A DNA stretch of 64,000 bases from an uncultured Chloroflexia bacterium (GCA_963833225.1 CAWHXD010000008.1:576001-640000); one strand, 5' to 3'; numbered from the stretch's first letter, positions 13,834-39,848 are shown. The notes: generated from the letters alone by a model not told the origin. Made by a program: numbers and translations.

Positions 13834-13840
13834 TGCGTGC

Positions 13841-23982: not shown

Positions 23983-24064
23983 CTGTGCTCTTCTCCTCCG
24001 CCAATGTGGCTTGGTCGATCACGGGTCGCCGATCGTTCCGCGCCGGTCGGACCCTCCAAGGTCG

Positions 24065-24434: not shown

Positions 24435-25366
24435 TCAGTGGTCGGTCCAGATCCTCCGTACCCGCTCCGCGACGCGCTCGGGCGTCAGGCCGTGCCGCTC
24501 GAGGAGCCACGCATTGGGGGCCGATTCCCCCACGTGTCCTCGATGCCGATGCGGATCATGGGCCGCGGCTCGTGCGTGACCAGGATCTCGGCCACGAGAC
24601 CACCGAGGCCGCCGGCCACCGTGTGCTCCTCCACCGTGACCACCATGGCCGCTTCGGCGGCGGCCGCGGCGATGGCCTCCTCGTCGCAGGGCTTGATCGA
24701 TGGCACGTGGAGGACGCCGGTGAAGAATCCTTCCGCGGCGAGCAGCTCCGCCGCCGCGAGCGTCCGGGCGGTCTGCTGCCCGGTGGACACGAGCAGCACA
24801 TCCCCGCCCTCGCGGAGCATGACCACGCGGCGCGGCTCGAACACGTAGTCCGTGCCGAACACATCCGGACCGGCCTCACGCCCCAGGCGCAGGTACACGG
24901 GACCTGGCGTCGCGGTGGCCCAGCGGGTCATCGCGGCGGTCTCGGCGGCGTCGACGGGCGCGAGCACGGTCATCCCCGGCATCGCCCGCATCACCGCGAG
25001 GTCGCTGACGTCCACGTGGGTCTTGCCCGAGAGGCCCGCCATCAGCCCGGTGTAGGCAGCGCCGATCTTGACGTTCGCGTGCGTCTGGGCCAGCGCCATC
25101 CGGACCTGGTCCAGCGCCCGGTTGGTGAAGAAGATCCCGAACGAGCTGAGCCAGGGCACGTAGCCGCAGAACGACAGCCCGGCCGCCGTCCCGACCATCC
25201 CCTGCTCCGCGATCCCCATCTGCAGGAACCGGTCCGGGTAGGCCGTGGCGAACGTGTCGGCCTTCGTGGACGTCGCGAGGTCCGCATCCATGACCAGCAG
25301 GTCCGGGTTGGTCGCGGCGAGCTCCACGAGGGTCTCGGCCCAGACGTCGCGTTGCGCCCTGCTCAC
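24435..25366 (-). CDS. transketolase C-terminal (pyrimidine-binding) subunit; frameshift ~24530
   Basis: DADLATST, MGIAEQ, GKTH, PGPVYLRLGR, VTVEEHTVAGGLG. Confidence 0.9.
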
Positions 25367-26268
25367 GGCACGCGGCCCTCCCCGTCCAGCTCGCGCCGGG
25401 CGGCCTCCGTCTCTTCGGCCGTGGCCGGGCGAGCGTGCCACTCGGAGCGGCCCTCGGTGAACGAGATGCCGCGGCCCTTGACCGTATGGGCGAGGATCGC
25501 CGTGGGCGTGTCCCCGGCGCTGGTGGACCGGGCATCCTCGCAGGCCGCGAGGATCTGGCCGAAATCGTGGCCGTCGATCTCGAGCACCCGCCAGCCGAAG
25601 GCCTCGAACGCCCCCCGGAGGTTGATGCCGGCCCATGGGTCGCGCCGGTTCCCGCGGTGCTCCTCGCCCTCCTCGAGCGGCCAGCCGTATTGCTGCATGC
25701 CGTTCCAGTCCACGATCGCCGTCAGGTTGCCGGCGCCATGGCGTGGGGCGACGTGCACGGTCTCCCAGACCTGGCCCTCCTGCGTCTCGCCGTCGCCGAG
25801 CATCGCGAACACCTGGCTCGGCAATCCGCGGCGGCGGGTGCCCATGGCCAGGCCCAGCGCGATCGAGATCCCCTGCCCCAGCGAGCCCGTCGACGAGTCG
25901 AGCCCGGGCAGCTTGAGCATGTCCGGGTGACCCTGGAGCCGGCTGCCCTCTCCGTCGAACGTCAGCAGCTCGGCCTCGGGGAAGTAGCCGCGCATCGCCA
26001 TCACGGTGTACAGCGCGATGGCGCTGTGGCCCTTGGACAGGACAAACCGGTCGCGCTCCGGCCAGTCGGGGCGCGCCGGGTCGATCCGCATCACGCGGAA
26101 GTAGAGCGCCACCAGCAGGTCCATCGCGGACAGCGGGCCGCCCACGTGGCCCGCCCCGGAATGGGCGACGGTCTCGATGACATGGAGGCGCCCGCGTCGG
26201 GCAAGCGCCTCGAGCTCCGCGTGGGGTCCGGCGCCGGCAGGCGTGCCCGGGGACGCGAGGCCGGCCAT
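25363..26268 (-). CDS. transketolase N-terminal (ThDP-binding) subunit
   Basis: GHVGGPLS, RDRFVLSKGH, LQGHPD, STGSLGQG, LGDGETQEGQVWE, HTVKGRG. Confidence 0.92.
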   Translation of the reverse strand: MAGLASPGTPAGAGPHAELEALARRGRLHVIETVAHSGAGHVGGPLSAMDLLVALYFRVMRIDPARPDWPERDRFVLSKGHSAIALYTVMAMRGYFPEAELLTFDGEGSRLQGHPDMLKLPGLDSSTGSLGQGISIALGLAMGTRRRGLPSQVFAMLGDGETQEGQVWETVHVAPRHGAGNLTAIVDWNGMQQYGWPLEEGEEHRGNRRDPWAGINLRGAFEAFGWRVLEIDGHDFGQILAACEDARSTSAGDTPTAILAHTVKGRGISFTEGRSEWHARPATAEETEAARRELDGEGRVP

Positions 26269-27153
26269 CAGGCCGGGGCCAGGCGCCCGAGCAGCGCTTC
26301 GAGGTACTCCCGGTTGGCCCGCGCGACGTCCTTGGGATCGTCGGGCGTGGTGTCCTGCTCCAGGACGAACCAGCCGTCGTAGCCGCGGTGGAGCAGCGCG
26401 TCCACGACCTCCGGGATCTGGGCGATCCCCTCCCCGAGGGCGGGGAAGATCCAGGTCTTGAGCGCCTGGCCGAAGCTCCACTCCTCGGCGCGCGCGCGTG
26501 GCGAGCACGTCGCCGTTGACGTCCTTGAGGTGGATGTGCCGCACGCGATCCCCGTAGGTGCCGAGCATCTCGAGGCTGTTGCCGCCGCCATAGGCCAGGT
26601 GCCCGACATCGAGGCACCAGCCGACCCTGGCCGGGTCCGTCTCGTCGAGGAGACGGGCGGTCTCGGCGGGGGTCTCCACGTACGTGCCCACGTGGTTGTG
26701 GAAGACGACGCTCATGCCCAGCGGTGACAGGTTGTCGGCAAGATCGTGGAGCCCGCGCGCGAGGTTGCTCCACTGCTCGTCGGTCAGACCGGCGGCCTCG
26801 TTGACGTGGCCCGCCTCAGCCCGGCGGCGGTCGTCGCCACCTTCCGCGGCGATCAGGAGCCGGCCACCGGTGGCGTGGAGCCGGTGGGCGATCGCCATCG
26901 CCTTGGCCATCTCCGCGTCATGCCGGTCCGCGTCGCGGAAGCCCAGGCCGACGAACGCCCCGACCATCTCCAGGCCGCGCTTGTCCAGCTCGACCTTGAG
27001 CTCGGCCGGGTCCTCGGGCATGCCGGGGCCCCACTCGGTGGCGTCGTAGCCCGCCTCGACGAACTCGTCCATCATCTGCCCATAGGGCAGCCAGGCGCGG
27101 TACTCGGGAACGTCGGGGTTGTTCCAGTTGACGGGTGCGGTCGCGATTCTCAT
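26268..27153 (-). CDS. iolE: myo-inosose-2 dehydratase-like; frameshift ~26495
   Basis: APVNWNN, FHNHVGTYVE, CLDVGH, HIHLKD, GWFVLEQD. TGATG overlap with iolD. Confidence 0.75.
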
Positions 27154-29039
27154 CACAGCAGCTCGGCTCGCTGGCGGCCCAACGCCACCTCGTACTTCTC
27201 GCGCGCGGCGTTGACCGTGTCCGACCCGGACACGGCCGCGACCGGCACGTCCCACCAGGAGTCATAGCCCGGGGCCCGCTTGTCGGGGCTCACCGCCACG
27301 TGGATCACGGTGACGCCATCGTGCTCGCGGCCCGCGGCCACGGCGGCGCGGATGTCGTCCTCCGTGCGGGCATAGAACCCCAGAGCACCCATCGACTCGC
27401 CGTGCTTCTTGAAGTCCACCGGGATGTAGCCGCCGGTGAGCCGGCCGCTCTTCCCCTCGCGGAACCGCAGCTCGTTGCCAAACTGGGGCACCCCGCAGTT
27501 CCAGGCGAGATCCTTGATGCACTGGTAGCCATGGTTGTCGAAGACCACGATCGTGAGCTTGATGCCCTCGGCGACCGCGGTCACGATCTCCGAGTTGAGC
27601 ATCAGGTAGGTGCCGTCGCCGATGGCGACCACGACCTCTCGCTCCGGCTCCGCCATCTTGATCCCGATCCCGGCGGGGATCTCGTAGCCCATGCAGGAGT
27701 AGCCGTACTCGAGGTGGTAGGCCTTGCTGTCCTCGGGCCGCCACAGCTTGAGCAGGTCGCCCGGCAGCGAGCCGGCCGCGCACACGATCGTCGCGTGCCC
27801 ACCCACCGCGTCGTTGAGGATGCCGATGACCTCGGGCTGGGCAAGATCGCCGCCGTCATCGACGGGCGTGCGATGGAAGGTGACCCGCTCGTCCCACTCG
27901 GCCTTGAGCGATGCGACCCGGGCCCGGTAGTCCTGGGCGGTCCCCTGGTGGGCAACGGCTGCCAGCCCGGCGCCGATGGCGTCGAGGGCGGCGCGCGCGT
28001 CCGCGACCACCTGGACGGAGCGCATCTTGCCGGCATCGAAGGCGTTGACGTTGATCCCGACGAAGGTGACATCCGGATCCTGGAAGGCGGTCCGCGAGGC
28101 GGTGACGAAGTCACCCATCCGCGTGCCGACCCCGATCACGAGGTCAGCCTCGCGCGCCAGCCGGTTGGCTGCCAGGCCACCGGCAGACCCGATCGGCCCC
28201 ACGTTCCACGGGTGGTTCCAGGGCAGCACGCCCTTGCCGGCCTGAGACTCGGACACGGGGATGCCGTGCTTGGTCGCCAGCGCGTCCAGGGCAGCCTCGG
28301 CTCCCGAGTAGATGGCCCCGCCGCCGGCCACGATCAGTGGCCGCTTTGCCGCCCGGATGAGGGCGACGACCTCGTCGGTCACCTCCGCCTCGGGCCGTGG
28401 ACGGCGGACGCGCCAGACGCGCTTGTCGAAGAACCGCGCCGGCCAGTCGTAGACCTCGGCCTGGACGTCCTCCGGCAGGGACACGGTGACGGCACCGGTG
28501 TCGGCCGGGTCCGTGAGCACGCGGAAGGCCTCCGGCAAGCTCGAGATGAGCTGTTCCGGGCGGGAGATGCGGTCGAAGTAGCGCGACACCGGACGGAAGG
28601 CATCGGACGCGGAGACATCGTGCTCCACCGGATGCTCCACCTGCTGGAGCACCGGATCCACCAGGCGGTTGGCGAAGTAGTCCGAGGGCAGGAGGAGTAC
28701 CGGCAGGCGGTTCACCGAGGCCGTGGCGGCACCCGTGATCATGTTGGTGGCGCCGGGGCCGATGGAGCTGGTGCACGCGAACGCGCGGAGCCGGTTGTTG
28801 TGCTTGGCAAAGGCCGCGGCCGCATGGACCTGCGCCTGCTCGTTCTGGGGCCGGTAGTACGGCATGTCGTACTCGTCGCCCAGCTCCTCGAGGGCCTGGC
28901 CAAGGCCCGCGACGTTGCCATGGCCGAAGATCCCCCAGACGCCGGCGATGAACCGCTGCTGGCGGCCGTCGCGCTCCACGTACTGCGCGGCCATGAAGCG
29001 GACGATGGCCTGCCCCACCGTCAGTCGAATCGTGCTCAA
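27153..29039 (-). CDS. iolD: 3D-(3,5/4)-trihydroxycyclohexane-1,2-dione acylhydrolase
   Basis: GIFGHGNVAGLGQAL, TSSIGPGATNM, AAGSLPGDL, YHLEYGYSCMGYE, SWWDVPVA. Confidence 0.96.
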   Translation of the reverse strand: MSTIRLTVGQAIVRFMAAQYVERDGRQQRFIAGVWGIFGHGNVAGLGQALEELGDEYDMPYYRPQNEQAQVHAAAAFAKHNNRLRAFACTSSIGPGATNMITGAATASVNRLPVLLLPSDYFANRLVDPVLQQVEHPVEHDVSASDAFRPVSRYFDRISRPEQLISSLPEAFRVLTDPADTGAVTVSLPEDVQAEVYDWPARFFDKRVWRVRRPRPEAEVTDEVVALIRAAKRPLIVAGGGAIYSGAEAALDALATKHGIPVSESQAGKGVLPWNHPWNVGPIGSAGGLAANRLAREADLVIGVGTRMGDFVTASRTAFQDPDVTFVGINVNAFDAGKMRSVQVVADARAALDAIGAGLAAVAHQGTAQDYRARVASLKAEWDERVTFHRTPVDDGGDLAQPEVIGILNDAVGGHATIVCAAGSLPGDLLKLWRPEDSKAYHLEYGYSCMGYEIPAGIGIKMAEPEREVVVAIGDGTYLMLNSEIVTAVAEGIKLTIVVFDNHGYQCIKDLAWNCGVPQFGNELRFREGKSGRLTGGYIPVDFKKHGESMGALGFYARTEDDIRAAVAAGREHDGVTVIHVAVSPDKRAPGYDSWWDVPVAAVSGSDTVNAAREKYEVALGRQRAELL

Positions 29040-29089
29040 CGCCAACGCTCCTCTCGCCTGTCCATCGACTCCGGCCACCGCTCCGTGGT

Positions 29090-29228
29090 CGCGTTCCGTT
29101 CCGGTGCGGGGTCGCGTTCCGTTGCGGCGGGTCACGATCCGTTGCGTTGCGGTCTCGCGGTCCGTTCCGTTGCGGTCTCGCGGTCAGCTCCGGCGGGGCG
29201 CCACGTGCTCCGTTGCGGTTCTCGCGGT
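29090..29228. repeat. degenerate short-unit repeat (gttccgttgcggtctcgcg-like) in the iolD leader
   Basis: About 5 imperfect units. Confidence 0.55.
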
Positions 29229-29241: not shown

Positions 29242-29285
29242 TGCAATCGATTACAAGTCTACCTTGCCAGTGCGAGCGAGGACAA
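29242..29285 (-). promoter_or_regulatory. iolD promoter + operator TGCAATCGATTACA (29242-29255)
   Basis: Minus strand TTGTCC-18 bp-TAGACT, with the operator immediately downstream. Confidence 0.75.
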
Positions 29286-29387: not shown

Positions 29388-29663
29388 GTTGCCTCCCAGG
29401 CAACGAAACGCGCCGGAGCTGGCTCCGGACCCCCGACCATTGCCTCCCAGGCAGCGAAACCCGGCCGAGCTGGCTCCGGACCCTAGGACCGTTGCCTGCC
29501 AGGCAACAAGTCGGGCGTGAAGCGTCGGCCGGGGGCGGAATCGTTGCCTGCCAGGCAACAAGTCGGGAGTGAAGCGTCGGCCGGGGGCGGAATCGTTGCC
29601 TGCCAGGCAACAAGTCGGGAGTGAAGCGTCGGCCGGGGGCGGAATCGTTGCCTGCCAGGCAAC
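29388..29663. repeat. array of six 17-bp palindromes GTTGCCT-SCC-AGGCAAC, 51-52 bp period
   Basis: Copies at 29388, 29439, 29491, 29543, 29595, 29647. Spacers 1-2 resemble each other and spacers 3-5 are near-identical. Confidence 0.92.
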
Positions 29664-29674
29664 AAGTCGGAACC

Positions 29675-29717
29675 TTGACGCCGGGGCGAACGGGCGAGTA
29701 GGCTGCAATCGATTACG
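29675..29717 (+). promoter_or_regulatory. lacI-family gene promoter with autoregulatory operator TGCAATCGATTACG (29704-29717)
   Basis: TTGACG (29675)-18 bp-TAGGCT (29699), overlapping the operator. Confidence 0.8.
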
Positions 29718-29854
29718 TGTGCCCGTGTCGTGCCCATCGCGCGGGTCGTTCATCGGGAGGACCTTGGGATGCTGCCAGCTCGGGTCGCCGCGGGCCTGCC
29801 AGCTCGGGTCGCCGCGGGCCTGCTCGCCCGCTCCGGCGCCCGCGGGGTCCAGGA

Positions 29855-30889
29855 ATGACCGAGCGCGCGAGCCCCGCCACGATCCGCAACGTCGCGGACC
29901 GGGCGGGGGTGTCGACGGCCACCGTCAGCAGGGTGCTCGCGGGGATCGGCCACCCCAAGCCCGATACCGCGGCTGCCGTGATGCGCGCCGTGAAGGACCT
30001 GGGCTACCGGCCCTCCGGGGTCGCCCGATCGCTGCGAATGAAGCGCACGCGGACGCTGGGCCTGATCATCACGGACATCGAGAACCCGTTCTTCCCGGAG
30101 CTCGTGGTCGCCGCGGACTCCGCGGCCCGCAGCCGGGACTACTCGATCATCTTGGGCAGCGCCGCCTACGACGAGCATCGGGCGATGCACTATCTCGACC
30201 TCATGGTCGACCGCCGGGTGGATGGCCTGATCATCGCGTCGAGCCAGCTCTCGGACCAGAGCTGGGAATGGCTGGAAGGGTCCCCGGTCCCGGTGGTGGT
30301 CGCCAACGCGGAGCCCAGCGGGCTCGGCGTGCCGGTCATCACCAGCGACAACGTGGGCGGAATGCGGCTGGCCGTTGAGCACCTCGTCGGCCTCGGCCAT
30401 CGCAAGCTGGCGTACATCCGCGGCTACGAGGGGTTCACGGCCGACGCGCCGCGGTTCGAGGGGTTCCGGGCGGCCTGCGCCGATGCCGGGCTCGCCGCCT
30501 CGGACCTTGTGGAGATCCGGGGCGACGGCCAGTTCGAGGGTGGCGAGCACGCGATGGCGGAGCTGCTCGCCCAGGGCTCCTCCATCACCGGGGTCATCTG
30601 TCACAACGACGTGACGGCAATCGGCGCGATGCGGGCGATCCGCACCGCGGGCCTGAGCATTCCGCGGGACATCAGCGTCGTGGGCTGCGACGACATCGCG
30701 GCGGCGTCATGGGTCACCCCGGCCCTCACCACCGTCGCCCAGCAGAAGGCGGAGATGGGGCGGCTGGCGGTTGAGCAGCTGGCGGCGGCCCTCGACGATC
30801 CCCTCCAGCCCGGCGCGGCGGAGACCGTCCGGATCCCGATGCTCCTTCGCGTGCGCGAGTCCAGCGGCCCCGCGCGGACGGACGGGTAG
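29855..30889 (+). CDS. LacI-family repressor, likely the inositol regulon regulator
   Basis: TIRNVADRAGVSTATVSRVL, LGYRPS..ARSL, NPFF, CHNDVTAIG, PALTTV. Confidence 0.95.
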   Translation: MTERASPATIRNVADRAGVSTATVSRVLAGIGHPKPDTAAAVMRAVKDLGYRPSGVARSLRMKRTRTLGLIITDIENPFFPELVVAADSAARSRDYSIILGSAAYDEHRAMHYLDLMVDRRVDGLIIASSQLSDQSWEWLEGSPVPVVVANAEPSGLGVPVITSDNVGGMRLAVEHLVGLGHRKLAYIRGYEGFTADAPRFEGFRAACADAGLAASDLVEIRGDGQFEGGEHAMAELLAQGSSITGVICHNDVTAIGAMRAIRTAGLSIPRDISVVGCDDIAAASWVTPALTTVAQQKAEMGRLAVEQLAAALDDPLQPGAAETVRIPMLLRVRESSGPARTDG

Positions 30890-30896
30890 CAGGGAC

Positions 30897-32042
30897 ATGG
30901 CCGAGCGGGTCCGGATCGGGGTCGTGGGCACCAGCTGGTGGGCGGACTCGATGTACCTGCCCGCGCTCACCCGACATCCGCTGGCGGACGTTCGCGCCGT
31001 CGTCGGCGGGCGCCCGGAACAGACGCGCGCCTTCGCCGAGCAGTGGGCCATTCCCAACACCTACCCGACGCTCGAGGCCATGCTCGACGGTGAGGCGCTG
31101 GACGCCGTCACGATCATGGCGCCCAACCTCCATCACCACCCGTACACCATGGCCGCGCTTGCTCGCGGGCTCCACGTGCTGTGCGAGAAGCCGCTTGGAA
31201 TGACCTCCGCCCAGGCGCGGGAGATGACCGAGACCGCCGAGCGGATGGGCGTGGTCAACATGTGCCCGTTCACCTACTCGTTCATGCCCTACGCCCGGTA
31301 CACGAAGGAGCTGGTCGACAGCGGCTACATCGGGCGTCCGTACCACCTCAACATGCGCTACTACGCGGACTACGGCCGCGATGGACGGTACATCTGGCGG
31401 TTCGATCTCGGTGAGGCCGGGGCGGGCGTGTCGGGGGACCTCGCGTCGCACTGGTCATACATCGCCCGCTGGCTGTTCGGCGAGGTTGCGGCAGTCACGG
31501 CGGTGTTCGGGCGGGTGGTGCCGCGGGCGCCGCGGCCCGATGGGGCGCCATTCGAGGCGGCCGAGGACTCGGCGATGATCCTGCTGGAGTTCGCATCCGG
31601 GGCCACCGGGAACCTCCATGTGTCCTCGGTGGCGTACGAGCCATCCCGGTTCGGGCAGCTCCATGCGTGGGAGCTGCACGGGTCCGAGGGGACGCTCCAC
31701 GTCACCTGCGACTGGGATGCCACGGAGCGCGTGGAGGGGGTGCGGATCGAGGGCGCCGAGGCGGACCGGACGGCCGAACGACCCCGGATCGCGGAGCTGC
31801 CGATCCCCGACCGCCTGTTCGATGGGCTGCGCCGGGACACGGTCCACAACACGTACAAGGACACGTTCCGCGAGCAGGACAACATGGCCCGCGGGTTCGT
31901 GACCGCGATCGCCGAAGGGGGCACGGCGGCGCCATCCTTCCGGGATGCCTGGGCGGTCCAGCGGATCGTGGATGCGGCCGGGCGATCGGCGCGCGAGGGG
32001 CGGCGGGTCACGATCGAGGAGATCGCAGCGGGCGAGCGGTAG
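30897..32042 (+). CDS. Gfo/Idh/MocA oxidoreductase
   Basis: RVRIGVVGT, HVLCEKPLG, GDLASH. Confidence 0.9.
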   Translation: MAERVRIGVVGTSWWADSMYLPALTRHPLADVRAVVGGRPEQTRAFAEQWAIPNTYPTLEAMLDGEALDAVTIMAPNLHHHPYTMAALARGLHVLCEKPLGMTSAQAREMTETAERMGVVNMCPFTYSFMPYARYTKELVDSGYIGRPYHLNMRYYADYGRDGRYIWRFDLGEAGAGVSGDLASHWSYIARWLFGEVAAVTAVFGRVVPRAPRPDGAPFEAAEDSAMILLEFASGATGNLHVSSVAYEPSRFGQLHAWELHGSEGTLHVTCDWDATERVEGVRIEGAEADRTAERPRIAELPIPDRLFDGLRRDTVHNTYKDTFREQDNMARGFVTAIAEGGTAAPSFRDAWAVQRIVDAAGRSAREGRRVTIEEIAAGER

Positions 32043-32053: not shown

Positions 32054-33124
32054 ATGCCGGACGACACGCCCACTCCTGCGCCGCCGACCACCGCGCCGCC
32101 GCCGGACGACCTGACCGTCCGGCCTTCCGAGCGGCCCACTTCGCCGACGCCCCGCACGGTCGCCCACCCCGCGCTCCGCCTGTGGGCCGGCGCGATCGCG
32201 TTCCTCGCGCTCCTGGTCGCGACGTACGCGCTGTTCGTGCTGACCGAGGCCGGCCAGCGCCTGGAGAACCTGGGCCTCGAAGGCTCCGCGCTCCGGGCCG
32301 GGGCGACCCGTGCCGACTCCACCTTTGGGCTGGCGACCATCAGCGTCGTGTCGTTTGCGATCTCGATCGTGGTGGTCGTGCTCGTCGCCCTGCTCCGCCG
32401 TCGGCCGGCGCTGGCGGTCGCCACGGTCGTCGCGATGGGCGGCTCGGCCGTGCTGGGGGCGATCCTCAAGGACGTCCTCCCGCGCCCCGAGCTGGTCGAG
32501 GGGCCTGCCTGGCTGCTGCGGAACAGCTTCCCCAGCGGCCACGCGACGGTGGCCGCGGCCGTCGGCGCCGGCATCCTGATGGTCGCCCCCGGCCGTCTCC
32601 GCTGGATCGCCCTCCCGGTGGCGGCGATCGGCACGGCGGTCATCGGCCAGGCGACCCAGATCGCCGGCTGGCATCGGGCGAGCGACGCCATCGGATCCAT
32701 GCTGCTCGTGCTCGCCGTGGCCGCGACCTCGCTCGCCGTCCTCGCGGCCGGTGGGTTCGTGGAACCCGATCCCCGCGGCCGCGTTCACCGGCGGATTCAC
32801 GTGGGCCTGGTGGCGTCCGCGCTGCTCCTCATCGCCACGGCCGGCCTCATGGGGCTGCTGCCGCTCCTGTTCCCGTTGCTGCGAGCGCCCACCGGCGCCG
32901 AGGGCGTGTTCGTGCATCTCGGTCTCGGCCTCGCCGGAGCGGGGATCACGCTGCTCGCCTTCGTCGGCTTCGGGCGTCTCGAGGAGCCGCTGGGGCTCGG
33001 CCGGCGACCCGGCGCGGGTGAGGCGTCCGGCACGGCACGCGGAACCGGTACGGCACGCGGAACCGGCATTGCCCACGCGCCCGACGCGGTCCCGGCGAGC
33101 GACGAGGTCCGGGCGAGCGACTGA
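32054..33124 (+). CDS. PAP2-family membrane phosphatase
   Basis: KDVLPRP, SFPSGHA, GWHRASD; multiple TM segments. Confidence 0.85.
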   Translation: MPDDTPTPAPPTTAPPPDDLTVRPSERPTSPTPRTVAHPALRLWAGAIAFLALLVATYALFVLTEAGQRLENLGLEGSALRAGATRADSTFGLATISVVSFAISIVVVVLVALLRRRPALAVATVVAMGGSAVLGAILKDVLPRPELVEGPAWLLRNSFPSGHATVAAAVGAGILMVAPGRLRWIALPVAAIGTAVIGQATQIAGWHRASDAIGSMLLVLAVAATSLAVLAAGGFVEPDPRGRVHRRIHVGLVASALLLIATAGLMGLLPLLFPLLRAPTGAEGVFVHLGLGLAGAGITLLAFVGFGRLEEPLGLGRRPGAGEASGTARGTGTARGTGIAHAPDAVPASDEVRASD

Positions 33125-33179
33125 ACCCGGGCCTGGCTCCGCCAGGGGGCCTCGAACGGGCACGGGGTACCATGGGAGC

Positions 33180-35460
33180 GTGCCGAGAGCCGCCCTGCCG
33201 GGGTCGCCGACCGCCACGTCTGCGAGGGACAGCCACTTGCCCGAGCGCCTCCTGGTGGTGTCCAACCGCCTGCCGCTGACGATCCGGCGGAGCGGCGAGC
33301 GATGGCACGCGGAGCGCAGCAGTGGCGGGCTCGTGGCCGCGATGGCGCCCGTCATGGAGCAGACCGACGGCCTGTGGATCGGCTGGCCGGGCGAGGCGTC
33401 GCCGGGTGGCGCGGAAGGACGCGCGGAGCTGCTCCGCAAGCTGGAACGCGAGCAGGCGATGGTCCCGGTGGAGCTACCGGTCTCGGTCAGCCGCGCCTTC
33501 TACGAGGGATACAGCAACAACACGCTGTGGCCGCTGCTCCACGGCTTCCCATCCCGGGTCACCTTCGACGCCGCCGCCTTCGCCGCCTACCGGGACGCCA
33601 ATGCGCGGTTCGCCGACGCCGTGGTCGAGCGCCTCGGACCCGACGACCTGGTCTGGGTCCAGGACTACCAGCTGATGCTCCTGCCGGGCATGCTCCGCGA
33701 GCGCCGTCCGGATGCGCGGATCGCGTTCTTCCTCCATGTCCCCTTCCCCGCCCCCGAGACCTTCAGGGTGCTCCCCCAGCGAGAAGACCTGCTGCACGGC
33801 CTCCTGGGTGCCGACGTGATCGGGTTCCAGACCCACGAGCACCTGGGGTCGTTCCGGCGAACGGTCCTCTCGGTCCTGGGCCTGGCCAACCGGATGGACC
33901 GGCTGGACCTCGACGACCGCACGGTCTCCCTCCAGGCTCGTCCGATCGGGATCGAGCCGGACGCCTGGGAGCAGCTCGTGGAGAGCGACCGACGGGTGAT
34001 CACCCGGATCGGGGATCTCGAGCGCCGTCACACCGGCCGCCACCTCGTCATCGCGGTCGACCGGCTCGACTACACCAAGGGCATCCCGGAGCGGCTGCGG
34101 GCTCTTCGCTACCTGTTCCATGCCCATCCCGAGTGGCGGGGCCGCATCACCCTCATCCAGGTCGCGGTGCCGTCGCGGGAGGGGATCCCCCGCTACGCGG
34201 CGCTGCGGCGCGAGGTCAACGAGCTGGTCGGCGAGATCAACGGTGAGCTCGGATCCGCGGACTGGACACCGGTCATCTACCTGCGCCGGTCCGTGCCACG
34301 CCATGAGCTGGCCGCCCTGTACGCGGCCGCGGACGTGGCCTGGATCGCGTCGCTCCGTGACGGGATGAACCTCGTTGCCAAGGAATACGTGGCCTGCCAG
34401 GGCACGCGGGCCGGGGTCCTGTTGCTGAGCGAGTTCGCCGGCGCGGCCGGCGAGATGGGCGAGGCGGTGCGCATCAACCCCTACGACGAGCAGGGGTCCG
34501 CGGAAGCCTTGATCCGCGCGCTCGAGATGGACGAGGAGACTCGACGGGATCGCCAGGAGGCGCTCCGGGGACGGATCCGCCAGAACACGGCGATCGCCTG
34601 GGCGGAGCGCTCCGTGGCCGATCTGCGCGACGCCGTGACCGAGCGGCGCCGGACGGTCAAGGACCTTCCGGCCCCACGGGTGGACGAGCTCCGCGTGCGG
34701 TTCGCCGCCGCTCGGCAGCGGATCTGTTACCTCGACTACGACGGCACCCTGGTGCCGCTCGCCCCACGCCCGCAGGACGCGACGCCGGGGGCCGGCGTGA
34801 CCGAGGTCGTGGCGACCCTGGCCTCACGTCGGGACACCACCGTCGCGATCGTCTCGGGCCGGCGCACCGCGGACCTCGAGCGCTGGTTCGGGAACGTGGA
34901 GCACCTCTGGCTCGCGGCAGAGCACGGAGCCCTGGTCCGGGCACCCGACAGCCACGAGTGGGTGCCTCTCCACCCGGGGGCCAACGCGGACTGGAAGGAG
35001 CGCGTCCGCCCGCTGCTGGAGCACTTCGCGGAGCGTGTCCCGGGAAGCCTGATCGAGGAGAAGGAGTACGCGCTCGCGTGGCACTTCCGGCTCGCCGAGC
35101 GGGAATTCGGGAGACTGGTTCGCCAACGAGCTCGCGGCCACCCTGGACCACCAGCTCGGGGGCACGGATCTCGCCGTCCTGCGGGGCAACATGGTGGTGG
35201 AGGTCCGGTTCGCGTGGGCGAACAAGGGCGATGTCGCGGCGTCCATCCGGGCGGCGGGGCCCGCCGCGGACCTTGAGCTGGCCATCGGGGACGACCGGAC
35301 GGACGAGGACCTGTTCGAGCGCCTGTCCCCGGACGCCATCACCATCCGCGTCGGTGGCGGGTCCACGCGGGCGAAGTACCGGCTACCCACCGCGGCCGCG
35401 ACGGTCGCGCTGCTGGGCACCCTCGCCGAGGCCGTTCCCGCGGCCCGGACCCGGCGCTGA
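33180..35460 (+). CDS. otsAB: bifunctional trehalose-6-phosphate synthase/phosphatase; frameshift ~35112
   Basis: VVSNRLP, SSGGLV, WVQDYQL, VDRLDYTKG, DGMNLVAKEY, then LDYDGTL and AIGDDRTDED. Confidence 0.92.
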
Positions 35461-35545: not shown

Positions 35546-37072
35546 CTAGCCGTTGCCGGGGAAGACGAGGCTCAGCGGCCCCTGCTTGCCGGGCTCCGGC
35601 CAGCGCTCGGTGACCATCTTCTGCTGGGTGAAGAAGCGGACGCCGTCCTCACCGCGCATGGCCAGGTCGCCCATCGCGGACTCCTTGGCGCCCGCGAAGC
35701 TCATGTAGCCCGCGGGCACCGGGATCGGCACGTTGACGCCGATCATCGGGACCTCGGACTCGAGCTTGAAGCGCCGAGCCGCACCACCATCGGTCGTGAA
35801 CACCGCGGTGCCGTTGGCGTACTTGTGATCGTTGATGAGCTTGAGGCCCTCGTCGAAGGTGTCCGCGTACACGATGCTGAACACCGGGCCGAAGATCTCC
35901 TCCTGGTAGATCTTCATGTCCGGGGTGACATGGTCGAACAGGGTCACGCCCAGGAAGAACCCGTCGGGGTTCGGGCCCTCGAACTTGCGCCCGTCGACCA
36001 GGAGCTCGGCTCCCTCAGCCTCGCCCACGCCGATCCACTTGATGACCGACTGGCGATGCTCGTCCGTGTAGATGGGGCCCATGTCGGTCCCCGGCTCCAT
36101 GCCATCGCCGATCTTGAGCTTCGCGATCCGCTCCATGATCTTGGGCTTGAGGCGATCCGCGGTGTCGCCCACCGCGACCAGCATCGTCTGGGCCATGCAG
36201 CGCTCGCCGGCCGAGCCGAAGCCGGCTGCGACCGCCGCGTCCGCAGCGAGGTCCATGTCCGCGTCGGGCAGGACGAGCATCGCGTTCTTGGCGCTCGTGT
36301 AGGACCCGACGCGCTTGCCGCGCTTGGTGCCCTCCTCGTAGACGTACCGGCCCACGGACGTGGAGCCCACGAACTGGATGGCCCGGATGCCGGGGTGCTC
36401 GACGATGGCCTTGACCGCCTCACGGCCGCCGTAGACGATGTTGAATGTGCCATCCGGGCCGCCGGCCTGCGTCCACAGCTCCGCCTGGAGCTGGGTGGCG
36501 CCCGGGGTGTGGGAGGACGGCTTGAGGATGACGGTGTTGCCCGTCATCAGCGCGATCGGGTAGATCCAGGCCGGGACCATCACCGGGAAGTTGAACGGCG
36601 TGATCGCGGCCACGACACCCAGCGGGGCGCGGAACGTGAACGCGTCCACCTTGGTCGAGACGTTGGGGGTCATCATGCCGGCGAGATGGACCGGCAGGCC
36701 GCACGCGAAGTCGATCGTCTCGATGCCGCGCATGACCTCGGCCAGGGCGTCCGGGAACGTCTTGCCATGGTCGCGGGTGATGTACGCCGCGAGCTCCTCG
36801 CGATGCTCGTACATCAGGTTCCGGAACTGGAAGAAGATGTTGGAGCGCGCGATGAGCGGCATGTCGCGCCAGGCGGGGAAGGCCGCGCTGGCCGCGACGA
36901 CCGCCGCATCGACCTCGGCCTGGCCACCGCGCGGCACGCGGGCGAAGACCTTGCCCGTGGCCGGGTTCGTGATCGGGCCGGTCTGCTCGGGGAGGACCTC
37001 GACAGCCGTGCCATTGATGTAGTGGGACAGGATCGGCAGGACTGCCGTCTCGTCGCGGGTTTCGATCGTCAT
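35546..37072 (-). CDS. iolA: CoA-acylating (methyl)malonate-semialdehyde dehydrogenase
   Basis: ITPFNFP, FVGST, AGFGSAGERCMA, EEIFGPV, IGVNVPIPVP. Confidence 0.92.
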   Translation of the reverse strand: MTIETRDETAVLPILSHYINGTAVEVLPEQTGPITNPATGKVFARVPRGGQAEVDAAVVAASAAFPAWRDMPLIARSNIFFQFRNLMYEHREELAAYITRDHGKTFPDALAEVMRGIETIDFACGLPVHLAGMMTPNVSTKVDAFTFRAPLGVVAAITPFNFPVMVPAWIYPIALMTGNTVILKPSSHTPGATQLQAELWTQAGGPDGTFNIVYGGREAVKAIVEHPGIRAIQFVGSTSVGRYVYEEGTKRGKRVGSYTSAKNAMLVLPDADMDLAADAAVAAGFGSAGERCMAQTMLVAVGDTADRLKPKIMERIAKLKIGDGMEPGTDMGPIYTDEHRQSVIKWIGVGEAEGAELLVDGRKFEGPNPDGFFLGVTLFDHVTPDMKIYQEEIFGPVFSIVYADTFDEGLKLINDHKYANGTAVFTTDGGAARRFKLESEVPMIGVNVPIPVPAGYMSFAGAKESAMGDLAMRGEDGVRFFTQQKMVTERWPEPGKQGPLSLVFPGNG

Positions 37073-37152
37073 GTTTCCGGTGTTCCTCCTGGGGTTCCGC
37101 CTAGGGATGTCTTACCTAGATGTTCGTATGCGCGGTCAAGCCACCCGCGGGC

Positions 37153-38253
37153 TCATGCGCCCTTCAGGTCCGGGTTGGGCATCATGATGTCGCGGACCGT
37201 TCCCTGCAGATCGTGGTACGACTGGACGAAGCCGCGCAGGGTCCGAACGGCGGCTCCATAGCCCTCGAATTCCGCCGGCGTCAGGCCATCCGGCTCATAG
37301 GCCCGGCGGAAGTCCGGGATCCGCGCGAGCAGGTCGTCGATCAGGCGCTGATCAACCGGCTTGTCGATCCGGGACTCCGGGTCGATGCCGGATGCGTTGA
37401 ACCGGACCTGCCAGGCGTAGGGCATCGTGAGCACGACGTCGCCGCCCACGAGCTCGGTCCAGTGGAGACGGTGGCGGTAGGCCGCCGCGAGCAGCCGCGT
37501 CCGGTAGCCGCGCTCCTGGAAGATCTCGTAGGCCCGCTTGAACGCGGCCACGCCGGCCCAGTTCGCCGCATCGGGGTCGAGGGCGACATCGTCCTTGCCC
37601 ACGAGGACCTTCATCCAGTCGTCGAGCCGCCCGATCATCAGCGAGCAGACCGGGCTGAACTTGCTGGTGTCGCCGCCGGCCGCCTCGAAGCGGCGGAGGC
37701 CGCGCTCGACCGCCTCCGCGGCGGCGATGCACTGGGCGACCGTGAACACCACCGTGACGTTGACCACGACGCCCCGGGCGGTGGCATCCTCGGCGGCCTG
37801 GAGGCCGGCCGCGGTGCACGGGAACTTGACCTGGATGTTGGGGGCGAGAGTGTTGAAGTGGACCGCCTGCTCGGCCATGCGGGCCGAGTCGCGGTAGTTG
37901 GCCGGGTTCGTCTGGAGCGACAGGCGGCCCTTCATCCCGTCGTGGGCATCGAACACCGGCTGCAGGATGCCGGCGCCACGGGCGCCCATCTCCTCGATCA
38001 GCGCCCAGGTGAGCTCCACCTCGGACCACGTCGGGTGCTCCCCGATCATCTCGCGGACCCGCGGGACCCAGTGATCCTTCTCCTTCTTCATCACCTCGCC
38101 CACGATCACCGGGTTCGAGGTGGCGCCGGTGCCCCCGCGCTCAACCGCGTAGGCGAGCTCGGCGACGGCGCAGGAGTCGTTCCAGAAGTCCGTCGGGGTG
38201 GCCTCAACCATCCGGGACAGCGGGCTGTCGATCGTGGTCAGCGTGGTGGTCAT
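37153..38253 (-). CDS. transaldolase-family protein
   Basis: WNDSC, GATSNPVI, IQVKFP (Schiff-base Lys), NVTVVFT, MIGRLDD, LLAAAYR. Confidence 0.88.
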   Translation of the reverse strand: MTTTLTTIDSPLSRMVEATPTDFWNDSCAVAELAYAVERGGTGATSNPVIVGEVMKKEKDHWVPRVREMIGEHPTWSEVELTWALIEEMGARGAGILQPVFDAHDGMKGRLSLQTNPANYRDSARMAEQAVHFNTLAPNIQVKFPCTAAGLQAAEDATARGVVVNVTVVFTVAQCIAAAEAVERGLRRFEAAGGDTSKFSPVCSLMIGRLDDWMKVLVGKDDVALDPDAANWAGVAAFKRAYEIFQERGYRTRLLAAAYRHRLHWTELVGGDVVLTMPYAWQVRFNASGIDPESRIDKPVDQRLIDDLLARIPDFRRAYEPDGLTPAEFEGYGAAVRTLRGFVQSYHDLQGTVRDIMMPNPDLKGA

Positions 38254-38347
38254 GCGTTCTCCGTGAGCTGTGGCCCGGGGTGCCTGTCGCACTCCATATA
38301 ATCGATGATCGATGCTTTGGGCGCAAGGGCCGACCCGGCCGTGTTCC

Positions 38348-39244
38348 TTACGCTCGAGCGCTCGGCCCGTCAGCTGTTGGCGCGGGCGGCGTCCAGTTCA
38401 TGAGCCAGGCATGGTCCGGGTCCAGGGTGAAATGCCAGGCCCGGTTGGGGCCGGCCATCACGTTGAGGTAGTAGCAGTCGTAGCCTGCCGGCACGCCGAC
38501 CGGGTGATACCCCTCGGGCACCAGCACGATGTCGCCGTCCATCGGCGTCATCGCCTCGTCCAGGCGGCGGTCCGCCGTGTACACCCGGGCGAAGGCGAAC
38601 CCCTGGGCCGGCTTCGCGAACTTGTAGTAGTAGAGCTCCTCGAGCCGCGCCTCGACCGGCGGGTTCTCGGTGTCGTGCTTGTGGGGCGGGTAGCTGGACC
38701 AGTTCCCGCCCGGGGTGAACACCTCGAATGCGATCAGGCGCCCGGCCTCCGCCGCGGGCGGCAGCAGGTGATGGATGCGACGGGCCGTGCTGCCCTCCCC
38801 GCGCGCCTCGACGAGGATGTCCTCCGGCCTGATGAGCGCGGTCCGGCGGATGGGGCCTCCGGGGGCCGCGCCGATCGCCACGAGGGCACTGGTCGTGGCC
38901 GTGGCCGACAGTGAGCGTCCGGGCTCAACGAGCAGCAGCGGCGGCGGCGGGCCATCGAACACCGAGGCCCGGGACCCCTGCTCGCCGAGGTCGTCGTCGC
39001 CCGCCGTCAGGATGGCACGGCCCTCGAGGAGGAGGAGCAGTCGCTCCATCCCGTCCGCGGCTCGTTCGACGCGCTGTCCGGGCTCCAGGCGATAGACGTG
39101 GAACGCGGTGAACTCCCACCCTGCCGACGCGGGGTCGATGCCGCAGACCAGCCCGTCGGGACCGGGATCGGCCGCGCGGCGGAGGAGGCGCCGCGCGGCC
39201 GATCGGTCGGGATGGGCGATGGGATCCCCTGTGGGATGGGTCAT
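38348..39244 (-). CDS. iolB: 5-deoxy-glucuronate isomerase
   Basis: EVFTPGGNWSSYPPHKHD, LEELYYY, LVPEGYHP, YYLNVMAGP. Confidence 0.95.
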   Translation of the reverse strand: MTHPTGDPIAHPDRSAARRLLRRAADPGPDGLVCGIDPASAGWEFTAFHVYRLEPGQRVERAADGMERLLLLLEGRAILTAGDDDLGEQGSRASVFDGPPPPLLLVEPGRSLSATATTSALVAIGAAPGGPIRRTALIRPEDILVEARGEGSTARRIHHLLPPAAEAGRLIAFEVFTPGGNWSSYPPHKHDTENPPVEARLEELYYYKFAKPAQGFAFARVYTADRRLDEAMTPMDGDIVLVPEGYHPVGVPAGYDCYYLNVMAGPNRAWHFTLDPDHAWLMNWTPPAPTADGPSARA

Positions 39245-39325
39245 CGATGCAGGCACCTCCGCGTCGCCCGGCCAGACGTCGAGTCCCGACGGGATCTCCG
39301 TCCTGGTGCCCGATCGGCCAAGATC

Positions 39326-39374
39326 GGCAATCGATTACATGAGCAATCTTCGCGCACCCTGACCGCATCGTCAA
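39326..39374 (-). promoter_or_regulatory. iolB operon promoter + operator GGCAATCGATTACA (39326-39339)
   Basis: Minus strand TTGACG-18 bp-AAGATT, with the operator 5 nt downstream. Confidence 0.7.
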
Positions 39375-39444
39375 GGGATTCCGGCCGATTGCGAACGAAT
39401 CGGGCCCGCGCCACAATGCGGCCGGCGTGGTCGCTGCGGCCGGC

Positions 39445-39668
39445 GTGGCCGGACAGGCAACGGAATCGCCGCTGGCCATCCCCCGCACCGGCCGGCGTGG
39501 CCTGCCAGGCCACGGATTCGCCCTCGCTGGGTCCGCTGACCGGTCTTCGTGGACTCTCAGGCCACAGGTTCGCCGGGCCCGGCCACCGTCGCCCGGTTTC
39601 GTGGCCTGCCAGGCAACGGACTCAGGGGCCGGGGTCGCGGTGCCGGGTTTCGTCGCCTGCCAGGCAAC
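39445..39668. repeat. array of five 17-bp palindromes (GTGGCCTGCCAGGCMAC), 51-52 bp period, with different spacers
   Basis: Copies at 39445, 39497, 39549, 39601, 39652. Confidence 0.85.
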
Positions 39669-39848
39669 GGCGCGGAACGGATCGCCACGTCCGCGGAACG
39701 GATCGCCACGGCCAGGGAACCCGCGAGATGGCCACGGAACCGGTATCCGGAGCCGCGCGTGACGCCGCGGTAGCGGCCCTGGAACGTCCAGCAGCCCGGG
39801 CCGGCGAGGGACCGGACCCGGGCGGTGACGAGCTGCCGTGGATGAACG

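Follow-up and report, generated by a model that had tools for sequence, protein, structure and literature searches.

Introduction

A close described parallel to the system considered here is the sulfo-TAL pathway (PMC7491151), in which an isomerase makes an unphosphorylated 6-sulfonated ketose and a TAL-family sulfofructose transaldolase moves its C3 glycerone unit to glyceraldehyde 3-phosphate (GAP), leaving fructose 6-phosphate (F6P) and an anionic C3 aldehyde. The route that we propose for inositol follows the same logic as that of Bacillus aryabhattai and B. megaterium (BmSF-TAL, PDB 8bc3), which likewise needs no sugar kinase. Its donor, 5-dehydro-2-deoxy-D-gluconate (DKG), differs in carrying a carboxylate on a 5-deoxy chain rather than a sulfonate. 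With the established Bacillus subtilis-type route through IolC and IolJ or a DUF2090 aldolase it has in common the input (DKG from IolB), one product (malonate semialdehyde) and the genes iolG, E, D, B and A; it differs in that neither the kinase nor a class II/DUF2090 aldolase is recognised, and in that the C3 unit would leave as F6P or sedoheptulose 7-phosphate (S7P) and not as DHAP. In the accessible text of a survey covering 193,757 genomes, the indispensable core consists of iolB, C, D and E, and no transaldolase is mentioned (PMC9430895).

Organization of the inositol locus

The window, a stretch of 64,000 nucleotides, comes from a soil-type Chloroflexota bacterium whose 3.89-Mb genome (3,890,542 bases in 20 contigs) is 86% complete. 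The features of the locus are as follows.

17175-20296, minus strand: IolE-like TIM barrel (19178-20296), IolG (18117-19181) and a further TIM barrel (17175-18116), from Pfam domains
20166-20179: operator-type motif, inside the predicted 5' end of the gene at 19178-20296
20297-24018, minus strand: sugar ABC transporter (binding protein 22978-24018, ATPase 21322-22977, permease 20297-21325), operator at 24082-24095
24485-25369, minus strand: transketolase C-terminal half (Transket_pyr and Transketolase_C)
25363-27261, minus strand: IolE-like TIM barrel joined to a transketolase N-terminal half in one open frame (AP_endonuc_2 and Transketolase_N)
27153-29135, minus strand: iolD (TIGR04377, 883.8 bits against a cut-off of 715)
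29242-29255, no strand assigned: operator upstream of iolD (YAATCGATTR motif)
29717-30889, plus strand: LacI-family regulator (LacI HTH and Peripla_BP domains), its own operator at 29704-29717
30771-32042, plus strand: Gfo/Idh/MocA oxidoreductase downstream of the regulator gene (weak IolG-model match, 104 bits against a cut-off of 355)
35546-37072, minus strand: iolA/mmsA, CoA-acylating (methyl)malonate-semialdehyde dehydrogenase (TIGR01722, 603.2 bits against a cut-off of 448.5)
37153-38253, minus strand: iol-linked TAL-like gene, a divergent member of the transaldolase family and the proposed DKG transaldolase (PF00923, 126.9 bits)
38348-39256, minus strand: iolB, 5-deoxy-glucuronate isomerase, which makes DKG (PF04962, 283.8 bits; TIGR04378, 284.5 bits against a cut-off of 205)
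39326-39339, minus strand: 14-nt palindromic operator TGTAATCGATTGCC upstream of iolB, from reading of the sequence
39345-39374, minus strand: promoter-like TTGACG, 18-nt spacer and AAGATT directly upstream of the iolB operator, read by eye

With iolB, iolD, IolE-type and IolG-type genes, iolA and a common regulator, the locus meets the description of a bacterial myo-inositol catabolic (iol) cluster. The call rests on iolB, iolD and iolA, which exceed their NCBIfam cut-offs, together with IolE-like and IolG-like genes that fall below theirs. The IolE-like barrels score 146 and 173 bits on TIGR04379 (cut-off 290), the higher value over model positions 2-223 in the frame at 25363-27261, which also reaches 260 bits on transketolase models; the lower value belongs to the 17175-20296 group, where NF052679 (inositol 2-dehydrogenase/D-chiro-inositol 1-dehydrogenase) gives 374 bits, below its cut-off of 540. 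The iolA/mmsA gene is the only copy found in the genome, the next best tblastn match being 31% identical.

The TAL-like gene thus named lies between the DKG producer and the malonate semialdehyde consumer. Its longest open frame spans 37153-38292, and the likely start is the ATG at 38253, which is preceded by GGAG and gives a protein of 366 residues, similar in length to its homologues. Gaps of 94 and 80 nt separate iolB, the TAL-like gene and iolA, a scan found no minus-strand terminator between them, and the three form a single unit with one promoter-operator in front, as the preliminary description had it. A second, paralogous cluster in the genome (iolD-iolB-tal-gfo-iolE-iolG) again pairs tal with iolB.

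A strict sigma-70 scan called no promoter at 39345-39374, and the promoter-operator layout read there recurs before iolD (TTGTCC-18-TAGACT-operator) and before lacI (TTGACG-18-TAGGCT-operator). The operator core YAATCGATTR occurs nine times in the 3,890,542 bases, and seven of these occurrences lie in the inositol locus, a concentration far from chance. A LacI-type repressor would control the entire gene set through one operator type.

Absence of the canonical kinase and aldolase

No iolC or iolJ is present in the window, as had been claimed, and none is recognisable in the genome, although absences there are qualified by its completeness of 86% and its division into 20 contigs. On TIGR04382 no gene in the genome exceeds the iolC cut-off of 300; the best match (165.8 bits, contig C19) adjoins a KDPG-aldolase/SDR gene. 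A genome search for DUF2090 gave no match, and PF01116 (class II aldolase) gave only two weak ones, of 52 and 44 bits, on contigs C17 and C13. An operator-controlled iolC or iolJ elsewhere in the genome would have refuted the preliminary description; a whole-genome motif search found no iol-type operator before any kinase or aldolase gene, and no kinase was found among the annotated genes of the operator-marked locus. In three congeneric genomes (94-97% complete) iolC is likewise missing at E<=1e-55, and in each of them a TAL copy adjoins iolB.

A transaldolase subfamily with an altered active site

Membership of the TAL/FSA superfamily is clear (126.9 bits on PF00923, cut-off 27), and the fold criterion is met as well: the AlphaFold model (pLDDT 94.7, pTM 0.92) has 7bbx, 3r5e and 3clm as its best Foldseek matches, with E about 1e-17 and TM 0.77-0.83, consistent with a TIM-barrel TAL fold. 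None of the specific transaldolase models is satisfied, the scores being 113.1 bits against 367 for NF002881, 69.6 against 233.75 for TIGR00876 and 51.2 against 396.2 for TIGR00874. The two iol-linked copies reach 113 and 102 bits on the best of these models, whereas a separate housekeeping transaldolase on contig C7 passes it with 378.8 bits. Identity to classical enzymes (E. coli TalB, Corynebacterium glutamicum 3r5e, Neisseria gonorrhoeae 3clm) is 20-23%. The gene belongs to a distinct transaldolase subfamily, which comprises 336 representative clusters at E<=1e-30 and of which 82 members were examined.

The signature of the protein is D39, N60, Q127, K156, M219, R222 and R273. What it has in common with the classical enzymes is the Schiff-base Lys, the Asp, the Asn, the N/T pair and both phosphate-binding Arg. 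Lys156, Arg222 and Arg273 are kept in 82 of 82 members, Asn60 in 81 and Asp39 in 78. K156 aligns with TalB K132, D39 with FsaA D6 (TalB D17; the MAFFT alignment shifts TalB by 3 residues around this position), and R222 and R273 are the counterparts of the TalB phosphate binders R181 and R228. The TalB residue numbers are consistent with PDB entry titles. Residues conserved in addition, unlike in the classical enzymes, are K252 and W294 (both 82/82), H277 (78/82) and Q154 (74/82).

Two positions depart from the classical pattern. Gln127 stands in all 82 members where TalB has the catalytic Glu96, a criterion for a classical transaldolase that is not met, and because of this replacement the protein is not an ordinary transaldolase; its chemistry may, as far as such a substitution can indicate, be unlike that of the textbook enzyme. 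By their entry titles, the PDB structures in which this Glu is changed to Gln, in TalB and in the Neisseria enzyme, are all engineered mutants. Met219, present in 81 of 82, occupies the position of TalB Phe178, which is also that of the catalytic Tyr131 of FsaA.

E. coli fructose-6-phosphate aldolase (FsaA) has Gln59 at the position of Gln127, and this agreement is the point in favor of an FSA-like lyase that would split DKG into free dihydroxyacetone and malonate semialdehyde without an acceptor, as FSA does with F6P. We regard such an activity as unlikely. The catalytic Tyr is replaced by Met, and the lack of a proton donor at that site fits transfer rather than release; the FSA model TIGR00875 is not met (48.2 bits against 245.95); and the protein is about 150 residues longer than FsaA. 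Both phosphate-binding Arg are retained, whereas a DKG lyase would need only one anion site. Finally, a search of the genome (86% complete) for the dihydroxyacetone kinase Dak1 came back empty, which leaves free dihydroxyacetone without an obvious outlet.

Comparison with BmSF-TAL (8bc3) sets the long, 366-residue type of the TAL-like protein against a match that is merely local, 31.6 bits over residues 124-198, and use of a similar reaction would therefore be an independent recruitment within the superfamily. Identification as a sulfofructose transaldolase was rejected on this local match and on the neighbors, which are iol and not sulfoquinovose genes.

Synteny and distribution relative to iolC

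Among 80 related loci, 24 have an iolB and/or iolD-type gene within 10 kb of the subfamily gene (TAL), the phyla represented being Chloroflexota, Actinomycetota, Acidobacteriota, Spirochaetota and Pseudomonadota. An iolA homologue lies within 3 kb of TAL in 23 of the 80, and one representative protein is an IolE-type TIM barrel fused to a subfamily TAL. Of the 80 loci, 32 lack iol context, some of them being on short contigs.

The preliminary description had called for a comparison of iolB-tal synteny with loss of iolC, and the two do go together in a sample of 400 Chloroflexota genomes. Among the 90 that are iolB-positive, iolC occurs in 0 of 24 with TAL and in 25 of 66 without it, and of the 24 genomes having both TAL and iolB, 19 carry the two no more than 3 kb apart. 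For the 42 with iolB and iolD the division is 12 with TAL only, 25 with iolC only, none with both and five with neither; the TAL-only genomes belong to 4 families and the iolC-only genomes to 11, with no family common to both within this set. Fisher p values computed from these counts overstate the case, because related genomes are not independent. A Thermoleophilia sample behaves alike with one exception: among 14 iolB-positive genomes, four of five TAL carriers lack iolC, while in the nine without TAL iolC exceeds the cut-off five times and narrowly misses it once more, with a match of 285.7 bits. Across many lineages, 19 of 23 genomes with TAL in iol context are without iolC.

TAL and iolC are not strictly exclusive. 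Both occur, with iolC over the cut-off, in 4 of 40 carrier genomes from other lineages; in three of the four (loci L077, L088, L099) iolC lies inside the TAL cluster, and so it does at a fifth locus, L076, known at the locus level only since the whole genome was outside the search, and one TAL carrier (G014) has an adjacent iolC-class II aldolase pair. The five iolB- and iolD-positive genomes that have neither TAL nor an over-cut-off iolC imply that other outlets or divergent kinases exist; in one of them, G327, the iol operon contains a split transketolase and neither of the two genes. A match of 294.7 bits in genome G198, under the cut-off, is probably a true iolC. Of 35 Chloroflexota TAL carriers, 11 have no iolB, and TAL there sits in a tal-mmsA-transketolase unit without iol genes.

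The four genomes with both genes could also be taken to mean that the TAL-like protein is an extra transaldolase that, with the transketolase of the locus, rebalances sugar phosphates of the pentose phosphate pathway while DKG goes to an unrecognised kinase and aldolase elsewhere. The split transketolase is indeed within the same regulon, and the genome has at least five PfkB-family genes besides the two weak class II aldolase-like matches. Yet the genome already has a canonical transaldolase, the catalytic Glu is missing from the subfamily, whose score lies far under every transaldolase model cut-off, no kinase gene has an iol-type operator, the best PfkB gene adjoins a KDPG aldolase, TAL is complementary to iolC in two phyla, and outside Limnocylindria and G327 the iol clusters with TAL have no transketolase. 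Such a helper role is in our judgment improbable.

Discussion

The reading that we favor, with real reservations, is that the TAL-like enzyme takes the dihydroxyacetone unit from DKG, hands it to a phosphorylated aldose and frees malonate semialdehyde for IolA. With comparable caution we think it would stand in for IolC and IolJ in the breakdown of myo-inositol; its substrate, its acceptor and the choice of transfer over hydrolytic release are all inferred. In the proposed sequence IolG, IolE, IolD and IolB would convert inositol to DKG, an unphosphorylated ketose acid with a D-threo head as in fructose. Lys156 would bind the keto carbon as a Schiff base, cleavage of the C3'-C4' bond (ketose numbering, from C6 of DKG) would let malonate semialdehyde depart, and the bound dihydroxyacetone unit would pass to GAP to give F6P or to erythrose 4-phosphate to give S7P. 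IolA would then convert malonate semialdehyde to acetyl-CoA and CO2. The chemistry is sound, since DKG numbered from C6 has the D-threo ketose head required by transaldolases (by Fischer-projection reasoning, IolJ being an FBP-aldolase homologue).

Observed are the identities of the genes, their regulon, the lack of iolC, iolJ and DUF2090, the residues that mark the subfamily, the synteny and the iolC-complementary distribution; activity, acceptor and transfer rather than plain aldol cleavage are inferred, no biochemistry exists, and a literature search found no paper on a DKG transaldolase route. The kinase-free transaldolase reading of the preliminary description is supported, with a restriction on its claim that the conversion proceeds without ATP: this stands for the cleavage step alone and fails overall if F6P goes through phosphofructokinase, where the ATP balance equals that of the IolC/IolJ route.

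A split transketolase acting first as the DKG outlet (a sulfo-TK analogue giving xylulose 5-phosphate and 3-hydroxy-4-oxobutanoate, the latter possibly oxidised to malate, with the TAL-like protein working on another ketose) would find support in the operon tktN-tktC-iolG-iolB-iolD-gfo-iolE of G327 (99% complete, no iolC, no subfamily TAL), in the continuation of the window's iolE-like frame into the transketolase N-terminal half and in the tal-mmsA-tkt units of relatives, but it is very unlikely. By chemical reasoning transketolase cleavage of DKG cannot give malonate semialdehyde, the substrate of the adjacent IolA, and the iol clusters in which TAL occurs in Gaiellaceae, Bryobacterales, Spirochaetaceae, Propionivibrio and Anaerolineaceae showed no transketolase next to it.

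The absent kinase and aldolase together with the interposed TAL-like gene point to an untested, ATP-free splitting of a sugar acid. A wider view, which we hold possible but slightly less likely than not, is that the widespread Gln/Met-type transaldolases, known here from at least five phyla, would be the first of their kind with a carboxylated sugar acid as donor. Inositol catabolism would then have a kinase-free branch that delivers the C3 unit straight into the hexose and pentose phosphate pool and that, where a dedicated split transketolase is present, would form with it a self-contained non-phosphorylative entry module; in genomes without iolB, the TAL-MmsA-transketolase units would point to yet another, unknown source of DKG-like 2-deoxy-ketoacids.

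The iolB-tal-iolA unit and its operator

The window (GC content about 71%) belongs to a genome of 3.89 Mb in 20 contigs that is 86% complete, and in it a divergent transaldolase-family gene (tal; its product and subfamily are called TAL here) lies between iolB and iolA:

38348-39256, minus strand: iolB (TIGR04378, 284.5 bits against a cut-off of 205)
37153-38292, minus strand: gene of the TAL/FSA family (PF00923, 126.9 bits)
35546-37072, minus strand: iolA/mmsA (TIGR01722, 603.2 bits against a cut-off of 448.5)

The tal start is most likely the ATG at 38253, judging from the GGAG ahead of it and the resulting predicted length of 366 aa, which matches that of homologues, the nearest of which are labelled as Limnocylindrales/Chloroflexota MAGs. 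The three genes are separated by 94 and 80 nt, and a terminator scan found no minus-strand terminator between them. Upstream of iolB, TTGACG and AAGATT, separated by 18 nt, are followed by the palindrome TGTAATCGATTGCC at 39326-39339, and this promoter-operator arrangement recurs ahead of iolD and of the divergent gene for a LacI-type regulator. Gene order, gaps and the promoter-operator ahead of iolB bear out the preliminary description in placing iolB, tal and iolA under one operator. Five RNA runs each contain at most 0.08 of the sampled words; from the four of these that were aligned, short RNA-library contigs (about 100-670 nt, mostly 90-95% alike) map to parts of iolA, tal and iolB, but they come from relatives, may include DNA and form no single transcript, and no claim here rests on them.

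The operator core YAATCGATTR occurs nine times genome-wide, with seven copies in the iol locus (window positions 13811, 16807, 20168, 24084, 29244, 29706 and 39328). The remaining two have a different flank (GATAATCGATT) and lie close to a transketolase paralogue at C8:949455, with no kinase near them. The operator-marked locus comprises iolD; a single open frame in which an IolE-like TIM barrel is joined to a transketolase N-terminal half; the C-terminal half of that transketolase; a sugar ABC transporter; a second IolE-like TIM barrel; IolG; a third TIM barrel; the LacI-type regulator; a Gfo/Idh/MocA oxidoreductase; and iolB-tal-iolA. No kinase gene is present among its annotated genes.

Several further features of the locus were observed. 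The split transketolase (24485-27261, minus strand) is part of the iol operon, immediately following iolD and iolE, and its N half, which shares one open frame with the TIM barrel in the window, is in a different frame from it in the paralogue on contig C1; split transketolases also occur at two other loci (L115 11966-13833 and L118 12910-14193). One iol-type operator (13809-13822) is at the 5' end of an EamA transporter gene (13748-14809) and another (16805-16818) at the start of a gene for a B12-binding-domain (corrinoid) protein (16155-16844, 229 aa) that adjoins a 256-aa ORF without a Pfam match; speculatively, this arrangement could hint at demethylation of O-methyl-inositols. The iolD-lacI intergenic region contains tandem repeats (29389-29670; 52 nt, 3.5 copies, 99% matches), every copy of which holds the palindrome GTTGCCTGCCAGGCAAC, and repeated copies of similar palindromes (GTTGCCTGGCAGGCSAC) precede the iolB promoter (39440-39700). 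A strict pattern for the intergenic palindrome has five matches in the genome, all within the window. Between the regulator-gfo unit and iolA, and convergent with iolA, is a fused trehalose-6-phosphate synthase/phosphatase gene (GT20 plus Trehalose_PPase; 32751-35276, plus strand) with no operator seen ahead of it.

Absence of the canonical outlet and distribution of TAL

The canonical outlet for the IolB product, 5-dehydro-2-deoxy-D-gluconate (DKG), is the IolC kinase together with an IolJ or DUF2090 aldolase. Searching the genome for iolC (TIGR04382) gave at best 165.8 bits against a cut-off of 300; neither DUF2090 nor Dak1 had a match in this 86% complete assembly, and class II aldolase had two weak matches, on contigs other than the window's. 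The best PfkB gene (on C19, 165.8 bits) was considered as a divergent iolC and rejected, as it adjoins a KDPG-aldolase/SDR gene, has neither iol genes nor the operator nearby and looks like a KDG-type kinase. The missing 14% of the genome is a caveat on the absence of iolC, eased by three congeneric genomes in the sample (94-97% complete), in which iolC is absent at E<=1e-55; a tal copy adjoins iolB in each of them.

Among 400 sampled Chloroflexota genomes, iolB was found in 90 (E<=1e-30), the TAL subfamily in 35 (E<=1e-40) and iolD in 80 (E<=1e-150). The iolC search was limited to the 90 iolB-positive genomes, where it exceeded its cut-off in none of the 24 with TAL versus 25 of the 66 without. 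Some low-scoring iolB matches look KduI-like, and the comparison was therefore restricted to the 42 genomes that have iolD as well as iolB; matches of about 210-220 bits in genomes of genus g4 and g75, with no iolD nearby and with KdgK-like kinases as neighbors, were rejected as KduI-like.

TAL and iolC in the 42 Chloroflexota genomes with iolB and iolD
TAL only: 12 genomes, 4 families
iolC only: 25 genomes, 11 families
TAL and iolC both: 0 genomes
Neither TAL nor iolC: 5 genomes

The families of the TAL-only and iolC-only genomes do not overlap within this set, and of the 24 Chloroflexota genomes carrying both TAL and iolB, 19 have the two no more than 3 kb apart. An independent sample of 150 genomes, from the class of a Gaiellaceae carrier (Thermoleophilia), contained 14 that are iolB-positive. 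Five carry TAL, four of these without iolC; in the fifth, iolB-iolC and TAL are on separate contigs. Among the nine without TAL, iolC passes the cut-off in five, and a sixth scores 285.7 bits.

Related loci were scanned with one genome per species, and their context was determined by local tblastn with the proteins of the window. All 80 are MAG records, with no cultured host among the listed cluster members. The subfamily gene has iolB within 10 kb at 19 loci, an iolD-type gene without iolB at five more, and an iolA homologue within 3 kb at 23; 32 loci, some on short contigs, have no recognised context. Lineages with an iol context span Limnocylindria, Anaerolineae, Gaiellaceae and other Actinomycetota, Bryobacterales, Spirochaetaceae, an alphaproteobacterial MAG and Propionivibrio. 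An IolE-type TIM barrel is fused to TAL in one representative protein, and in another gene call TAL runs into an IolB fragment. iolC was also searched for in 40 of the 80 locus genomes (23 with iol context and 17 others) and found in four, all among the 23; the 19 iol-context genomes without it include Gaiellaceae, an Actinomycetes MAG, Bryobacterales, Spirochaetaceae and Anaerolineaceae. The preliminary description, having seen neither iolC nor iolJ in the window, had proposed a kinase-free transaldolase route for inositol, to be checked by a genome search for iolC, iolJ and DUF2090 and by asking whether iolB-tal-iolA synteny co-occurs with loss of iolC. Both computational tests have been run and both favor that interpretation, the second in Chloroflexota and, with one exception, in Thermoleophilia.

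Other variants were noted. At a Bryobacterales iolB-tal-iolD locus (L096 6360-6608), 89 residues share 39% identity with the C-terminal portion of the kinase domain of IolC and may be an iolC remnant or a piece of another PfkB gene. Thirty-eight of the 80 strong-iolD Chloroflexota genomes lack iolB at E<=1e-30, among them 13 from family f21 (the 80 and the 38, but no other counts, take in the unpublished genome G267), and in 12 TAL- and iolB-carrying genomes the sole iolD-like protein is a divergent ThDP enzyme (42-44% identity at loci L035 and L037). From such genomes it seems that further pathway variants exist.

Several results count against the transaldolase reading. TAL and iolC coexist in four genomes (G013, G014, G018 and G022), and iolC lies within the TAL cluster at loci L076, L077, L088 and L099, as an IolC-DUF2090 fusion in all but L077; in G014 iolC and a class II aldolase form an adjacent pair. 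Because these four loci fall in one clade of five rows in a quick tree, coexistence may be the state of a single lineage in which the TAL route is redundant. In addition, 11 of the 35 Chloroflexota TAL carriers lack iolB, and most of these have tal-mmsA-tktN/C, a unit conserved in Limnocylindria without iolB (L116, L117 and L118, from G128, G098 and G293, and L038-L062). No iolD was found in G128, G098 or G293 either. At L118, the one locus with annotated flanks, the unit adjoins GntR regulators, a 588-aa PEP-utilizers mobile domain protein, a molybdopterin hydroxylase and a cyclase.

The TAL protein and its paralogues

By its model scores, the iol-linked TAL is not the housekeeping enzyme: a transaldolase on contig C7 passes NF002881 (378.8 bits against 367), and the iol-linked protein and its paralogue in a second cluster reach 113 and 102 bits. 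That cluster (C8:785208-792358, locus L017) has the order iolD-iolB-tal-gfo-iolE-iolG, and no iol-type operator was found at it; a third tal copy, at a contig end (C17:388675-389762), is 65% identical and frameshifted. The genome contains three iolD genes and two complete iolB-tal pairs, L017 and L018 (C1:957-5794) being among these loci. A more divergent TAL-like gene (C7:342829-343893; L020 8829-9893, plus strand) directly follows an acetolactate-synthase/Xsc-like ThDP enzyme and scores just 51 bits against transaldolase models; it has Gln at the Glu position and keeps the Lys, but the catalytic Asp is replaced by Asn and Arg222 by Ile.

The subfamily comprises 336 clusters at 50% identity (E<=1e-30). 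The AlphaFold model of TAL (pLDDT 94.7) superposes on Neisseria and Corynebacterium transaldolases with TM scores of 0.77-0.83 at only 20-23% identity. In an alignment with E. coli TalB and FsaA, tallied over 82 subfamily members, K156, R222 and R273 are kept in all 82, N60, N178 and T180 in 81 each and D39 in 78. Q127 (82/82) is equivalent to Glu96 in TalB and Gln59 in FsaA, and M219 (81/82) to Phe178 in TalB and Tyr131 in FsaA; the TalB numbers match both a count along the TalB sequence and those in PDB titles, for example 'E96Q F178Y'. Also conserved are K252 and W294 (82/82 each), H277 (78/82) and Q154 (74/82). A quick IQ-TREE placed E. coli TalB inside the subfamily with a branch length of 10, which we read as a long-branch artefact, and so no topology is claimed except the long stem setting off housekeeping transaldolase.

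A proposed transaldolase route for DKG

Written from C6, DKG is CH2OH-CO-CHOH-CHOH-CH2-COO-, and turning its D-gluco Fischer projection places the 3'-OH left and the 4'-OH right, as in D-fructose, the configuration required both by FBP-type aldolases (IolJ) and by transaldolases. Inferred from this established stereochemistry alone, DKG would suit a transaldolase. Cleavage between C3' and C4' would yield OHC-CH2-COO-, malonate semialdehyde, the substrate of the downstream IolA. That Lys, Asp, Asn and Thr are all retained points to a Schiff-base mechanism, and retention of R222 and R273 to an anion site that could hold the DKG carboxylate and the acceptor phosphate in turn; K252 and H277 are further candidates for binding the carboxylate. 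We consider it reasonably probable that TAL is a DKG-donor transaldolase.

The Gln at the TalB Glu position lacks an explanation under this reading and is the residue found in FsaA; an FSA-like lyase is nevertheless unlikely, since Met at the FSA Tyr position and the lack of a Dak1 match in the 86% complete genome argue for transfer and not release. The carriers without iolB indicate that the subfamily works outside inositol catabolism too, yet still beside MmsA. Given the complementary distribution with iolC, we hold a role as pentose-phosphate helper to be improbable for the iol-linked enzyme. A route that begins with the transketolase could draw on G327 (99% complete, one of the five genomes with neither gene), whose operon tktN-tktC-iolG-iolB-iolD-gfo-iolE lacks iolC and subfamily TAL and leaves room for another DKG outlet, but is very unlikely here, as a sulfo-TK analogue would, after isomerisation, leave a C4 product without a 3-OH instead of malonate semialdehyde.

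If TAL is a DKG-donor transaldolase, the step itself would need no ATP. Where F6P passes through phosphofructokinase the energy balance equals that of the canonical route, and ATP would be saved only where F6P or S7P goes to biosynthesis or the pentose phosphate pathway, a use that the adjacent transketolase may serve. The nearest functional precedent is sulfofructose transaldolase, described in PMC7491151 as converting SF and GAP to F6P and sulfolactaldehyde. The sequence relation of TAL to the solved BmSF-TAL is merely local (31.6 bits), so this would be an independent recruitment. The proposal combines known elements, the iol pathway and the substitution of a transaldolase for a kinase and aldolase. 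We found no paper in which a transaldolase is connected with DKG or with the breakdown of inositol; the search did not extend to subscription journals or supplements, and a prior description cannot be excluded. An inositol-cluster genome survey (PMC9430895) takes iolB, C, D and E to be the indispensable core, puts a missing fourth gene down to incomplete data and does not mention transaldolase.

If correct, this would be the second natural replacement of a kinase and aldolase by a transaldolase, after sulfo-TAL, and the first with a carboxylate substrate; mechanistic studies and biocatalysis would also gain a naturally occurring active site in which Gln stands for Glu and Met for Phe. In genome surveys and in tools that look for pathway gaps, iolC counts as an essential core gene, and genomes with iolB and iolD and no iolC are scored as incomplete or as non-utilisers. 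Were the TAL route real, inositol and phytate turnover would be under-called in Thermoleophilia, Acidobacteriota, Spirochaetota and the abundant Chloroflexota of soil and freshwater (Limnocylindria and Anaerolineae), where it would concern 12 of the 42 sampled genomes with iolB and iolD.
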